A DNA stretch of 48,302 nucleotides from the sequence record OL539451.1; one strand, 5' to 3'. Shown here one piece after another: positions 37,235-47,929 of the stretch; positions within the stretch are counted from its first letter, which is position 1, and the number at the start of each line of letters is the position of its first letter. The notes beneath the pieces were generated by a model. It ran no database searches, was not told where the DNA came from, and saw only the letters and a program-made list of their open reading frames with translations. Origin of the DNA: Escherichia phage vB_EcoD_Opt-719. The position numbers and the translations under genes were made by a program.

Positions 37235-37420
37235 ATGGCTAAGTTCACACAATCAGATGCACAAATCGAAGTTAAAGATGTTGGTTTTGGTAAGGCATTC
37301 AAGATTGCGCAGGCGTACGGGTCTAGCGAAGAAGATGTGAAAGTTGACACTATTAACCTTACTGCTAAGAATGCACGTGAGATCGCTTATGCAATCCTTG
37401 CAGCACTTGGAGAAAAATGA
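37235..37420 (+). CDS. hypothetical protein (61 aa)
   Basis: GAGAGGA RBS; first cistron after promoter cassette. Confidence 0.45.
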   Translation: MAKFTQSDAQIEVKDVGFGKAFKIAQAYGSSEEDVKVDTINLTAKNAREIAYAILAALGEK

Positions 37421-37421
37421 A

Positions 37422-37595
37422 ATGACTAAATTATTTTGCGTAATCAACAAATCAAAAACTCTGCCGTTCACTGTAAACAATCCGTATAGCGCTGAGTATC
37501 AGGGTGAAGGAAACTACAAGATTTATGGCGATGACATGACATGGATTTTTGCGCCAATCGATGGAGCTTTGTTGGAATTCATTATCGCAGACTAA
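37422..37595 (+). CDS. hypothetical protein (57 aa)
   Basis: ATG 2 nt after upstream TGA; same frame as track ORF 37344..37595. Confidence 0.35.
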   Translation: MTKLFCVINKSKTLPFTVNNPYSAEYQGEGNYKIYGDDMTWIFAPIDGALLEFIIAD

Positions 37596-37621
37596 GTTAT
37601 TAAAAACATTAACTTGCAAAT

Positions 37622-37648
37622 AGGCGGCCTTTAAGGCTGCCTTTTTTC
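37622..37648 (+). terminator. rho-independent terminator
   Basis: hairpin AGGCGGCC-TTTAA-GGCTGCCT (one G-U) followed by TTTTTT; precedes lysis cassette. Confidence 0.65.
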
Positions 37649-37709
37649 GTTTATGTCAAAGGCTAATGTCTGGTATTATTTAACCAAATCAACTAAACAA
37701 GGCCGCAAC

Positions 37710-37925
37710 ATGAAACATTTCTATGACGCAGCCGCCTTGTCCGGTAGCGGAGTAGCTATGGGCGGCGGTTTATCTGACAACACAATCATCGGCATTATCG
37801 GATTAGTTATCGCCGTATGCTTTGGTATTTTTGGCGCATGGCTGCGCTGGCGTGACAGTAAAGCGCTCCATAAGGCACTTGAAGATGGAGACATCCGAGA
37901 GGCAATGAGAATCAGGAGCAAATGA
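37710..37925 (+). CDS. putative holin (single-TM, possibly pinholin)
   Basis: 71 aa from ATG 37710; one hydrophobic helix IIGIIGLVIAVCFGIFGAWL and charged C-terminus; immediately upstream of lysozyme; alternative upstream ATG 37653. Confidence 0.55.
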   Translation: MKHFYDAAALSGSGVAMGGGLSDNTIIGIIGLVIAVCFGIFGAWLRWRDSKALHKALEDGDIREAMRIRSK

Positions 37926-38407
37926 TGAGCATCAAAAATAAGGTAATTGGTTCGGCAGTAGCTGGTGCCATGGCGTTAGCGGTTCCGTTCCTTAATGAGC
38001 ATGAAGGCGTTGAGTACAAGCCTTACAGAGATATTGCTGGGGTATGGACCACATGCGCTGGAATTACTGGTCCTGACGTTATTCTAGGTAAGGTTTATAC
38101 TAAGAAAGAGTGTGACGCGCTTCTTGCAAAGCACTTAGCAATTCATCAGCGCGCTGTTGATAAAGCTCTGAATGTTAATGTTCCAGTTAGCACCAGGGCG
38201 GCACTGTACAGTTTTTCATTCAATGTGGGAACCAGTGCAATGCGCAACTCGACTGTTATTAGGCGCATGAATCGTGGCGATATCCGCGGAGGATGCGAGG
38301 CGCTATCTATGTGGAATAAAATTAGCGTTGGTGGCAAGAAGGTTGTTAGTAAAGGCCTGGTTAACAGGCGTAACGCGGAGATTAAACTATGCGTCTCGGA
38401 ATTGTAA
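37922..38407 (+). CDS. endolysin, phage lysozyme (GH24-like), probable SAR type
   Basis: EGVEYKPYRDIAGVWTTCAGITG resembles P22/T4-type lysozyme catalytic region; Gly/Ala-rich weakly hydrophobic N-terminus VIGSAVAGAMALAVPF. Confidence 0.8.
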   Translation: MMSIKNKVIGSAVAGAMALAVPFLNEHEGVEYKPYRDIAGVWTTCAGITGPDVILGKVYTKKECDALLAKHLAIHQRAVDKALNVNVPVSTRAALYSFSFNVGTSAMRNSTVIRRMNRGDIRGGCEALSMWNKISVGGKKVVSKGLVNRRNAEIKLCVSEL

Positions 38408-38793
38408 TTATTGCAACTGTATTACTGACTGGTTGCTCTGGCCTATCGGCTATTTCTGATTTTTTACCAGCAAAGGATGGCGTCGAGGCAACAGCGCAGG
38501 TGGGTGAATCTAACCAGAAAACAGGGGTTGGGCTATCAAATCAGACAGACAAATCTAGCTCTATAGAAAGCGATATGCGCAACTCAACTAACAGAGACGT
38601 GGACTCATCAAGCCAGAAAAAGACCGCCGCTACTGGCCTATCAGCTAACACAATAACGGCTGAAAAGATTGAAATTCATAGTACTGAAAACTCAGGGGTA
38701 GATTCATTAGTCTGGGGTATTCTTGCCGGGCTAGTTTCTTGTTTGTTAACTTACTTCACTTTAAGATTTGCAGGAAACAAAAAAGGAGCCTAA
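38389..38793 (+). CDS. unimolecular spanin-like protein (lipoprotein with C-terminal TM)
   Basis: N-terminal lipobox LLTGC and C-terminal TM helix LVWGILAGLVSCLLTYFTL; last gene of lysis cassette. Confidence 0.65.
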   Translation: MRLGIVIIATVLLTGCSGLSAISDFLPAKDGVEATAQVGESNQKTGVGLSNQTDKSSSIESDMRNSTNRDVDSSSQKKTAATGLSANTITAEKIEIHSTENSGVDSLVWGILAGLVSCLLTYFTLRFAGNKKGA

Positions 38794-38806
38794 TGGCTCC
38801 TTTCTC
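38778..38806. terminator. bidirectional rho-independent terminator
   Basis: hairpin AGGAGCC-TAAT-GGCTCCT flanked by A-run and T-run; between convergent lysis genes and minus-strand block. Confidence 0.7.
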
Positions 38807-38808
38807 TA

Positions 38809-39006
38809 TTAATAATCATCCTCCTCGAGGTTGTCACCCTCATACACTAAAAAGAACCCAAGCCTTTGTAATTCAGCTCCCGCCATGAAGTAACCCAACG
38901 CTTCGGCTCGCTCTGAGTCATTTTTTAAACCATCTAAAGGGTATCTCTCATAAAATTTATTAATCAACATAGCTTGGTCAAACTTGCTTGAATTGTATTC
39001 TTTCAT
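38809..39006 (-). CDS. hypothetical protein (65 aa)
   Basis: minus-strand ORF, acidic C-terminus; last gene of minus block. Confidence 0.35.
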   Translation of the reverse strand: MKEYNSSKFDQAMLINKFYERYPLDGLKNDSERAEALGYFMAGAELQRLGFFLVYEGDNLEEDDY

Positions 39007-39338
39007 TTAAATAATTCCTCGTCTGTCATTTCTTTTATCGTCATCATCTCATTGGTGTACTTATCACTCTCACCATTAAGGCATCTGAAGCTAAATCCGA
39101 ATGGTCGCTTCATGCTTCCTTTACTCCAGTAATTACCATTAACTCCATCGATGTAACCTTCAGTCATACATCTTGCCAGAAACTCCTTTGACGCGGATGA
39201 TGCAAAGTAACGCGTAGTAACTCCAGCCGCTTTAGCCATTCTTTCACAGTCTTTATGGCGGTAAATGAACACCGCCAGATGCTGCCTGTTAAATCTCTCG
39301 TAGCTCTCGCAGAACTTGAACACATCTAGTAAAAACAT
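39003..39338 (-). CDS. hypothetical protein (111 aa)
   Basis: minus-strand ORF with GGGTGA RBS; overlaps downstream gene start. Confidence 0.4.
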   Translation of the reverse strand: MFLLDVFKFCESYERFNRQHLAVFIYRHKDCERMAKAAGVTTRYFASSASKEFLARCMTEGYIDGVNGNYWSKGSMKRPFGFSFRCLNGESDKYTNEMMTIKEMTDEELFK

Positions 39339-47746: not shown

Positions 47747-47822
47747 GTTCTGTTAGTGTAAGTGGACAGCACGAAGACCTCCTAAGTCTTAGGTACTGGT
47801 TCAAGTCCAGTGCGGAACGCCA
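47747..47822 (+). tRNA. tRNA-Arg (anticodon CCU)
   Basis: 76 nt cloverleaf by hand: 7-bp acceptor (GTTCTGT/GCGGAAC, two G-U), D-stem GTGT/GCAC with GG in loop, anticodon loop CUCCUAA, T-arm ACTGG-TTCAAGT-CCAGT, encoded CCA. Confidence 0.8.
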
Positions 47823-47827
47823 AATAT

Positions 47828-47929
47828 GCTCACGTTGCTAATGTTGGCCTAAGGGTGGAGCTTATACCTCCATAAAGCAATCACCAGATAAGTGATGTAA
47901 CGCAGGTTCGATTCCTGCCGTGAGCACCA
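47828..47929 (+). tRNA. atypical tRNA-like element (102 nt incl. CCA)
   Basis: perfect 7-bp acceptor pairing GCTCACG/CGTGAGC, T-arm GCAGG-TTCGATT-CCTGC, discriminator A plus CCA; two candidate anticodon stem-loops (CUUAUAC, CAGAUAA); D-region ~26 nt too long. Confidence 0.35.

Follow-up and report, generated by a model that had tools for sequence, protein, structure and literature searches.

A T1-like lysis cassette in Escherichia phage vB_EcoD_Opt-719, with a holin gene most likely starting at the second of two in-frame ATGs

Organisation of the lysis region

The window analysed here, a stretch of 48,302 nucleotides (sequence record OL539451.1), is the complete genome of a Drexlerviridae phage (Rogunavirinae, T1-like), Escherichia phage vB_EcoD_Opt-719. 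Its lysis genes follow the order holin, endolysin and spanin and end at a terminator, the spanin gene being the last and lying directly 3' of the endolysin gene (Table 1). The three ORFs, the two in-frame ATGs of the holin ORF and the motifs described in the original prediction are all present. The ORFs match PHROG families of holins (6e-36), endolysins (7e-55) and Rz-like spanins (9e-43) and are therefore real genes rather than chance ORFs; homologues occur in hundreds of phage records. An NCBIfam scan of the three proteins gave sub-threshold generic lysozyme matches only, and nothing for the holin or the spanin.

Table 1. Features of the lysis region (positions are those of the window)
Feature	Position	Strand	Basis or remark
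Small DUF7244 (SH3-clan) gene, just 5' of the lysis cassette	37422..37595	+	Pfam DUF7244 5e-28; phrog_4788
Rho-independent terminator, GGCGGCC-TTTAA-GGCTGCC plus T-run	37622..37648	+	Terminator scan; fold energy -15.8 kcal/mol
Holin 5' leader, in-frame 19-codon extension open only in this lineage	37653..37709	+	Most likely untranslated
Holin, 71 aa, T1 gp13 family	37710..37925	+	phrog_2877; T1 gp13 identity; family alignment; hydropathy
Predicted SAR endolysin, R21-type GH24 muramidase	37925..38407 (or from 37922)	+	Pfam; R21/RrrD alignments; T1 gp12; hydropathy
Predicted u-spanin, T1 gp11 family, 134 aa	38389..38793	+	phrog_1804 9e-43; T1 gp11; family alignment; hydropathy
Bidirectional terminator hairpin at cassette end	38782..38803	.	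Fold energy -15.1 kcal/mol (+), -18.1 kcal/mol (-)

The upstream terminator divides the cassette from the preceding genes and ends 3-4 nt 5' of ATG 37653; it is kept in relatives, and the annotations of AHP24, AHP42 and Sin4 mark a terminator there. [quoted passage not shown] At the other end, the stop codon of the spanin gene falls inside the loop of the bidirectional hairpin, beyond which lie convergent minus-strand genes, and a terminator is annotated at the equivalent site of Rogue1, AHP24 and Sin4.

The lysis region is 100% identical to that of the GenBank phages Opt-79, Phleasolo and Sadiya, whose genomes were announced in PMC9119101 and whose records label the three genes holin, endolysin and putative U-spanin. 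In the Rogue1-like phages (Rogue1, phiKP26, e4/1c, phiJLA23, AHP24/42, C119, Sf12 and phiEB49) the cassette DNA is 85-88% identical, the 71-aa holins are identical or differ by at most two residues, and the spanins, which appear in the published list of the T1gp11 family, are 88-90% identical to the present one. The expert-curated phage Sin4 has an identical layout of terminator, pinholin, SAR endolysin, u-spanin and terminator. T1 itself, a member of the Tunavirinae rather than the Rogunavirinae, has the same gene order (gp13, gp12, gp11), similar sizes (71, 160-162 and 133-134 aa) and flanking terminators, with identities of 37% for the holin, 50% for the endolysin and 34% for the spanin. 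It differs in that its spanin and endolysin genes abut, whereas here the spanin gene overlaps the 3' end of the endolysin gene by 19 nt, and in that the periplasmic domain of the spanin has strongly diverged from that of T1 gp11.

The holin gene and its upstream ATG

The longest holin ORF (37653-37925) would encode 90 aa and contains two in-frame ATGs, one at 37653 and the other 19 codons on at 37710, a pair that had been put forward as a possible dual start, with the longer product as antiholin. What was said of its layout and composition stands, as the 19-residue extension, MSKANVWYYLTKSTKQGRN, carries four Lys or Arg and no Asp or Glu; the antiholin reading fared less well in the comparisons that follow.

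The two ATGs differ in their initiation signals. ATG 37710 is preceded, at a spacing of 7 nt, by the Shine-Dalgarno sequence AAGG (37699-37702), although this is weaker (-3.0 kcal/mol) than the AGAGG of relatives (-5.8). For ATG 37653 we found no usable Shine-Dalgarno: the DNA just upstream is the terminator tail, CCTTTTTTCGTTT, and the sole purine-rich match to the anti-Shine-Dalgarno lies inside the terminator stem. The leaders of the Rogue1-like phages combine their AGAGG with a TAA at codon 15 of the extension, where this lineage has AAA. An in-frame TAA stands at this codon in 11 of the 11 relatives examined, so that ATG 37653 is in frame with the holin because a stop was lost in this lineage, and the AAA creates what would be an illusory 90-aa ORF.

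Furthermore, the extension evolves like non-coding DNA: all six of its variable codons differ in the encoded amino acid or introduce a stop, and none is synonymous-only, whereas 29 of the 33 that vary in the holin core are synonymous-only and four are not (Fisher p = 6e-5). Homology also begins at the second ATG. The phrog_2877 profile aligns over all its 71 positions (1-71) with residues 20-90 of the 90-aa ORF, the match to T1 gp13 begins at Met20, and so do the tblastn matches of the wider holin family. Six Drexlerviridae holins, T1 gp13 among them, have lengths of 71-72 aa and begin M[K/R][E/H][F/V]; Rogue1 and phiKP26 encode exactly the 71-aa holin of this phage. Of the 15 listed members of the 27-member cluster to which this holin belongs, 13 have 71 aa, and the 90-aa form is limited to four contigs, near-identical isolates from a single study. 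A word-indexed homologue search with the 71-aa protein returned its own cluster only.

These comparisons suggest that ATG 37653 is most likely part of an untranslated leader. The alternative is a true dual start, in which both ATGs are used and the 90-aa product serves as an antiholin and postpones triggering, its four extra N-terminal positive charges blocking the passage of the N-terminal segment across the membrane as in lambda S107 and S21-71. Lambda S107/S105 and phage 21 S71/S68 are holin-antiholin dual-start pairs, and they too have two in-frame Met and a longer form with added N-terminal positive charge, so the mechanism would fit the open frame and the charge of the extension seen in this phage. 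However, known dual-start motifs have a spacing of 1-3 codons rather than 19, and the upstream start here has no ribosome-binding site and heads an extension that is unconserved and interrupted by a stop in all relatives examined. In favour of a true dual start, the 90-aa ORF is the one that gene callers selected for the GenBank records, and a dual start has been proposed for the related TLS holin, though elsewhere in the protein (M1RDFLLM7). On balance we regard a true dual start in this phage as very unlikely.

Low-level initiation at the open-frame ATG 37653 may nevertheless take place on read-through transcripts. A recent origin of a dual start can also be imagined, in which the TAA-to-AAA change in the lineage of Opt-79, Phleasolo, Sadiya and Opt-719 fused a short leader ORF to the holin, and some ribosomes starting at ATG 37653 on read-through transcripts would make a 90-aa antiholin with an N-terminal tag of +4; we hold such a very recent, de novo dual-start timing switch to be highly improbable.

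A consensus sigma-70 scan of the gap between terminator and holin detected no promoter. Under relaxed settings we found an extended -10-like element, TGGTATTAT, at 37671-37679, with a poor -35 (2-3 of 6), which is conserved in the Rogunavirinae. A promoter at this place would leave ATG 37653 outside the transcript, and we set the idea aside because the element is weak and recurs at no consistent position in T1, Sin4, Henu7, 011D2 or LF82-19. In the MFE fold of the leader, the region of ATG 37653 is paired with that of ATG 37710. An sdi-like regulatory stem in the leader, as in lambda S, was likewise considered and dropped, as it would be a single predicted structure without covariation support.

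By hydropathy, the 71-aa holin consists of a weakly hydrophobic, Gly/Ala/Ser-rich segment at residues 7-21 (AAALSGSGVAMGGGL), one strong TMD at residues 25-45 (Hessa-scale sum -2.9) and a charged C-terminal tail. The holins of T1 and TLS are classed in the literature as class II pinholins, and the present gene adjoins that of an R21-type SAR endolysin, the partner of a pinholin; it is on this association that the label rests in the T1 gp13 family. Pinholins of the S21-68 type depolarise the membrane through small holes of about 2 nm, in contrast to micron-scale ones. No Pfam family, the S21 holin family included, was matched by the holin at E <= 0.1, so any similarity to S21 would be functional or topological and not a matter of belonging to the S21 sequence family. 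This result, the values of segment 7-21, which are far below those of a stable TMD (73% GAST, KD mean 1.15, Hessa-scale sum +4.3 kcal/mol), and the single TMD reported in the T1, AHP24 and Sin4 annotations (annotators' TMHMM/Phobius) would suit a single-TMD holin (N-out, C-in) rather than a two-TMD pinholin, with an N-terminal segment that is never inserted into the membrane and the other functions of the cassette unchanged. The segment is indeed weaker than typical SAR domains, yet its weak hydrophobicity is kept across six diverse family members, in which G14 and G19 are invariant, and it resembles the SAR-like TMD1 of S21-68. Given this conservation and the literature classification, we find the single-TMD version rather unlikely, and since a pinholin would reach the same final topology after exit of TMD1, the outcome would differ little.

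The endolysin

The endolysin gene probably starts at ATG 37925 and possibly at ATG 37922, which lie 6 nt and 3 nt, respectively, from an AGGAG at 37914-37918. Its product matches Pfam Phage_lysozyme (PF00959) at 2e-37. The N-terminus, MMSIKNKVIGSAVAGAMALAVPFL, places K5 and K7 ahead of the stretch VIGSAVAGAMALAVPFL at residues 8-24 (nt 37943-37993 for the approximate SAR domain, 161-aa numbering), with a Kyte-Doolittle mean of 2.07. The value drops to 1.48 for a 19-residue window, and with a Hessa-scale sum of +2.9 membrane insertion of this segment would be marginal.

The alignments support the earlier assignment of this lysozyme as a SAR-type endolysin, and the protein is a homologue of phage 21 R21. 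Those with R21 (PDB 3hde; 1.8e-38, query 9-158 to chain 14-161) and E. coli DLP12 RrrD (4zpu; 4.4e-39, query 10-158 to chain 15-161) begin at residue 9 or 10 and thus cover the weakly hydrophobic N-terminal domain, whereas the soluble P22 lysozyme (2anv) aligns from residue 22 only. R21 (3hde/3hdf) and RrrD share with the present protein the GH24 fold and the Glu-8aa-Asp-5aa-Thr spacing of the catalytic residues, here E28, D37 and T43 (161-aa numbering), which align with R21 EGVSYIPYKDIVGVWT. They likewise carry an N-terminal Gly/Ala-rich SAR domain without Cys. Residues 1-44 of the present protein contain no Cys, the first being C45; as a regulatory Cys in the SAR domain is absent, the enzyme would be of the R21 type and not of the disulfide-caging type of P1 Lyz. 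The SAR stretch is somewhat shorter than in R21 and RrrD (about 17 against about 20 residues) and has less Gly/Ala/Ser/Thr (47% against 65%), and unlike those enzymes the present one is partnered by a u-spanin and by a holin that is not related to S21.

The basic K5 and K7, the hydrophobic core and a possible A-M-A site at residues 16-18 also resemble the n/h/c layout of a cleavable Sec signal peptide, which would make the product a soluble periplasmic enzyme rather than a tethered one. We judge this extremely unlikely. The same region aligns with R21 and RrrD, both of which retain an uncleaved SAR domain at the N-terminus; T1 gp12 has no AXA motif at that place, the catalytic Glu28 is only four residues past the hydrophobic stretch, and a free, active secreted muramidase would cause premature lysis.

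The spanin

The third protein had been predicted to be a unimolecular spanin of the T1 type, and its comparison with T1 gp11 (34% identity over 121 aa, E 1e-16) supports this. It has a lipobox, LTGC, at residues 13-16 (Cys16 codon at 38434-38436), preceded by an h-region with KD values of 2.3-2.5. Ser17, at the +2 position, is not Asp and is compatible with sorting by Lol, which would bring the protein to the outer membrane. Across 28 aligned sequences of the family, T1 gp11 among them, C16 is invariant, G15 is at least 90% conserved and a TAQVGxxNxK motif is shared. The C-terminal TMD, at about residues 106-126 (nt 38704-38766; for 107-125, KD mean 1.98 and Hessa-scale sum -0.5), is followed by a basic tail, RFAGNKKGA, and TMD and tail are kept in nearly all members of the alignment.

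The only Cys residues of the protein are at 16, in the lipobox, and at 118, in the TMD, so that the periplasmic domain, of about 89 aa, is free of Cys; none of the 58 u-spanins surveyed by Kongari 2018 (PMC6139136) has a Cys in its periplasmic domain. The AlphaFold2 model built from a 35-sequence alignment contains helices at 3-22 and 102-128, the latter with the highest pLDDT of the model (84). It is a low-confidence model that shows no periplasmic beta structure: residues 29-91 have a pLDDT below 50 and no assigned secondary structure, and with a mean pLDDT of 54.7 it is uninformative on a beta-rich periplasmic domain.

The T1gp11 family of Kongari 2018 (PMC6139136) includes Rogue1, phiKP26, e4-1c, phiJLA23, phiEB49 and AHP42, and its cassettes combine a pinholin with a SAR endolysin except in J8-65 and Limezero, neither of which is among the 88-90% identical relatives of the present spanin. 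As far as that paper and PMID 30135120, as represented in papers citing it, go, lipidation, tethering of outer to inner membrane and complementation of lambda RzRz1 are described for T1 gp11 only.

Discussion

We read the region 37653-38793, at a probability of about 0.88, as a canonical T1-like phage lysis cassette with a 71-aa holin starting at ATG 37710, a SAR endolysin and a u-spanin, the upstream ATG being untranslated. Such a cassette is not a new finding, though it had been put forward as a possible one: it is already annotated in GenBank and its family is covered by the published spanin survey.

How lysis would proceed, as regards membrane topology, timing and fusion mechanism, we infer from the characterised homologues R21 and T1 gp11. 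The 71-aa holin would accumulate in the inner membrane and depolarise it at a programmed time. Until then, the R21-type muramidase would be exported via Sec and held on the periplasmic side of the inner membrane, with its weakly hydrophobic N-terminal domain keeping it inactive; upon depolarisation this domain would exit the bilayer, and the enzyme would refold and degrade the peptidoglycan. The u-spanin would be anchored in the outer membrane by the lipid on Cys16 and through its C-terminal helix in the inner one and, once the murein is gone, would draw both membranes together and so disrupt the outer membrane.

The importance of these results lies chiefly in annotation quality. The 273-nt (90-aa) holin CDS of the Opt-79, Phleasolo and Sadiya records is most likely a longest-ORF artefact, and the correct start of the gene in these phages should be the ATG equivalent to 37710 of the window, giving 71 aa. 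Should the 90-aa holin be produced nonetheless, it would offer a neat natural example of a dual-start antiholin born from the loss of a single stop codon.

Organisation of the cassette and its close relatives

All sequence features underlying the original prediction of a lysis cassette are present in the window (see table); of its interpretation, the SAR-type endolysin and the unimolecular spanin (u-spanin) stood, the dual-start holin did not. The three cassette proteins matched PHROG profiles for a holin (6e-36), an endolysin (7e-55) and an Rz-like spanin (9e-43). The cassette is flanked on both sides, by a terminator upstream and a bidirectional hairpin downstream, a terminator-bracketed layout annotated likewise in Rogue1, AHP24 and Sin4. 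Immediately 5' of it, with the terminator in between, lies a gene for a DUF7244 protein; a 2026 paper (PMC13164509) regards standalone DUF7244 proteins, which belong to the SH3 clan, as a widespread, hypothetical auxiliary part of the lysis modules of Drexlerviridae.

Features of the lysis region and the right end of the window
Feature	Position	Strand	Remarks
DUF7244 protein, 57 aa, SH3 clan	37422-37595	+	Pfam 5e-28
Strong rho-independent terminator	stem 37622-37642, then T-run	+	-15.8 kcal/mol
Holin ORF	37653-37925	+	in-frame ATGs at 37653 and 37710
Extended -10-like element TGGTATTAT	37671-37679	+	30 nt 5' of the holin ATG
Endolysin ORF	37922-38407	+	Pfam Phage_lysozyme 2e-37
Spanin ORF	38389-38793	+	lipobox; C-terminal hydrophobic helix, basic tail
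Bidirectional terminator hairpin	38782-38803	both	spanin stop codon inside the loop
Convergent genes	from 38809	-	downstream of the cassette
Adjacent tRNA genes	47747-47822 and 47828-47929	+	near the right end

In database comparison, positions 37400-39100 were 100% identical to Klebsiella phage vB_KpnD_Opt-79 and Escherichia phages vB_EcoD_Phleasolo and vB_EcoD_Sadiya, Drexlerviridae of the subfamily Rogunavirinae with genomes of ~48.3 kb, equal to the window, published among 22 T1-like phages in a genome announcement (PMC9119101). About 30 more Rogue1-like phage records share 85-88% DNA identity with the region. The lysis system is already known and annotated, and the Sadiya GenBank record names the three genes holin, endolysin and putative U-spanin. 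The near-identical genomes OL539453, OL539447 and OL539467 (48,301-48,303 bp; 100% identity across the queried 1.7 kb) are assigned to three hosts, namely Klebsiella, E. coli and Serratia marcescens, which reflects either a broad host range or inconsistent records. One of the paired tRNA genes is a tRNA-Arg(CCT); the other tRNA-like sequence is unusually long (~93-99 nt), ARAGORN assigns it no anticodon and it scores 42.7 bits with the Rfam tRNA model.

The holin start codon

The two in-frame ATGs and the Lys/Arg-rich extension between them (MSKANVWYYLTKSTKQGRN, 19 residues with four Lys/Arg and zero acidic ones), from which a holin/antiholin pair had been proposed, are real, but a dual start failed five independent tests: the context of the first ATG, the relatives, the substitution pattern, the family boundary and the distribution. 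ATG 37653 lies only 3 nt past the terminator T-run, the 13 nt preceding it consist of pyrimidines and one G, and it has no usable Shine-Dalgarno, the sole anti-Shine-Dalgarno match within 20 nt upstream being an AAGG in the terminator stem. ATG 37710 is preceded by AAGG (37699-37702) at 7-nt spacing. The element TGGTATTAT is kept in the Rogunavirinae examined, but its -35 match is just 2-3/6; it could be the cassette promoter, in which case ATG 37653 would fall outside the mRNA. In a single predicted minimum free energy fold of 37615-37760 (+), GUUUAUG around ATG 37653 pairs with CAUGAAA around ATG 37710.

We compared the region with 11 relatives from at least three genera (Rogue1, phiEB49, Sf12, phiKP26, AHP24, e4/1c, phiJLA23, AHP42, C119, BECP10 and UDF157lw). 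In all 11 the frame opened by the upstream ATG is closed at codon 15 by a TAA, where the Opt-719 lineage has AAA, and a stronger AGAGG precedes the holin ATG. Their conserved upstream ATG thus begins a 14-codon mini-ORF, e.g. MSKFNIWYYLIKST and a stop (window equivalent 37653-37697), whose TAA overlaps the holin Shine-Dalgarno (TAAAGAGG); it may be a translated leader peptide coupled to holin translation, or just promoter/leader sequence. Across the 12 sequences, all six variable codon columns of the extension are amino-acid-changing or stop-creating vs 29 of 33 synonymous-only in the 71-codon core (Fisher p = 6e-5), placing the shift in substitution pattern at ATG 37710.

Homology mostly starts at the same residue. 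The 71-position PHROG holin profile matches residues 20-90 of the 90-aa ORF, the T1 gp13 alignment begins at Met20, and among the tblastn matches listed most phages outside the Rogue1 group begin at residue 20, the others somewhere within residues 10-19, apart from a weak partial match that begins at 57. Six diverse family members have 71-72 aa and an M[K/R][E/H][F/V] N-terminus. In a collection of 15 billion proteins the 90-aa sequence occurs on four contigs only (Opt-79, Sadiya, Phleasolo and Opt-719); its cluster has 27 members, and the 15 listed comprise 13 of 71 aa, one of 90 aa and one 55-aa miscall. The phiEB49 annotation gives the holin a truncated CDS of 55 aa from an internal Met (locus positions 953-1120), although the conserved ORF of 71 aa begins at 905, another start-codon mis-call in the family.

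Since these five tests go against a dual start, the GenBank 90-aa CDS is best explained as a longest-ORF call enabled by lineage-specific loss of a stop codon. A mechanism in which a positively charged extension blocks N-terminal translocation, as in lambda S107 or S21-71, is coherent; with some low-level initiation at ATG 37653 on read-through transcripts conceivable, we regard it as improbable.

The endolysin and its start codon

The endolysin aligns with the phage 21 SAR endolysin R21 (3hde, 1.8e-38) and RrrD (4zpu, 4.4e-39) from residue 9-10 on, and the alignments therefore cover the signal-anchor-release domain, whereas that with the soluble P22 lysozyme begins only at residue 22. The E28, D37, T43 catalytic spacing is identical to that of R21. 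The N-terminal stretch VIGSAVAGAMALAVPFL, preceded by K5 and K7, is 47% Gly/Ala/Ser/Thr and marginally hydrophobic (Hessa-scale sum +2.9 vs -2.9 for the holin TMD); it contains zero Cys, so the enzyme is R21-type and not P1 Lyz-type. T1 gp12 (50% identity) has an N-terminus of the same kind. The sequence thus supports the predicted SAR-type lysozyme.

A tandem ATGATG (37922-37927) overlaps the holin stop (ATGATGA), and GenBank starts conflict, Sadiya using the first ATG and Phleasolo the second. The 160-aa form from ATG 37925, which begins MSIKNK as in T1 gp12 and most relatives, is the likelier product: AGGAG (37914-37918) lies 6 nt from this ATG and 3 nt from ATG 37922.

The spanin

The spanin shares 34% identity (E 1e-16) with T1 gp11, the prototype u-spanin, which has been characterised by experiment. 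Together with the lipobox (LTGC, Cys16, then Ser at +2), the C-terminal helix and the basic tail, this argues for the T1-type u-spanin originally proposed. We aligned 28 sequences, comprising 50%-identity cluster representatives from an exhaustive HMMER search and T1 gp11: Cys16 is invariant, Gly15 at least 90% conserved, a TAQVGxxNxK motif is common to members, and in nearly all the C-terminus consists of a hydrophobic stretch and then basic residues. Cys occurs only at positions 16 and 118, the latter within the TMD, which fits the published rule that u-spanins have no periplasmic Cys (PMC6139136). The T1gp11 family of Kongari et al. (2018, Table 5) includes Rogue1, phiKP26, e4-1c, phiJLA23, phiEB49, AHP42, AHS24 and AKS96, and according to that paper all its members save J8-65 and Limezero occur in cassettes with a pinholin and a SAR endolysin; among those compared, the phiKP26, phiJLA23, AHP42 and e4/1c spanins are 88-90% identical to that of Opt-719. 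A low-confidence AlphaFold2 model (pLDDT 54.7) shows two terminal helices only and gives no confirmation of a beta-rich periplasmic domain.

A model for lysis

The 71-aa holin has one strong TMD (residues 25-45, KD ~2.3-3.0), a conserved, very weakly hydrophobic Gly/Ala/Ser-rich N-terminal segment (residues 7-21, KD 1.15) and a charged C-terminal tail. Judging from its SAR endolysin partner, it likely works like a pinholin; it may have a two-TMD topology. The T1 and TLS holins are classed as class II pinholins (PMC6139136, PMC11447400), and the curated Sin4 annotation also names a pinholin, yet with one TMD by TMHMM; Pfam holds no sequence relationship between the S21 holin family and the 71-aa holin.

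By analogy with homologues, for which the steps have been shown, the holin and a Sec-exported, membrane-tethered inactive endolysin would build up in the inner membrane. The spanin would acquire its lipid at Cys16, pass to the outer membrane, in keeping with Ser at +2, and thread the murein meshwork, its C-terminal helix remaining in the inner membrane. Holin triggering would collapse the membrane potential, the SAR domain would exit the bilayer and the endolysin would refold and degrade the peptidoglycan; the spanin, freed from the meshwork, would then draw the two membranes together and disrupt the outer membrane. On a practical level, the analysis yields a correction of the annotated holin start, and probably of the endolysin start too.
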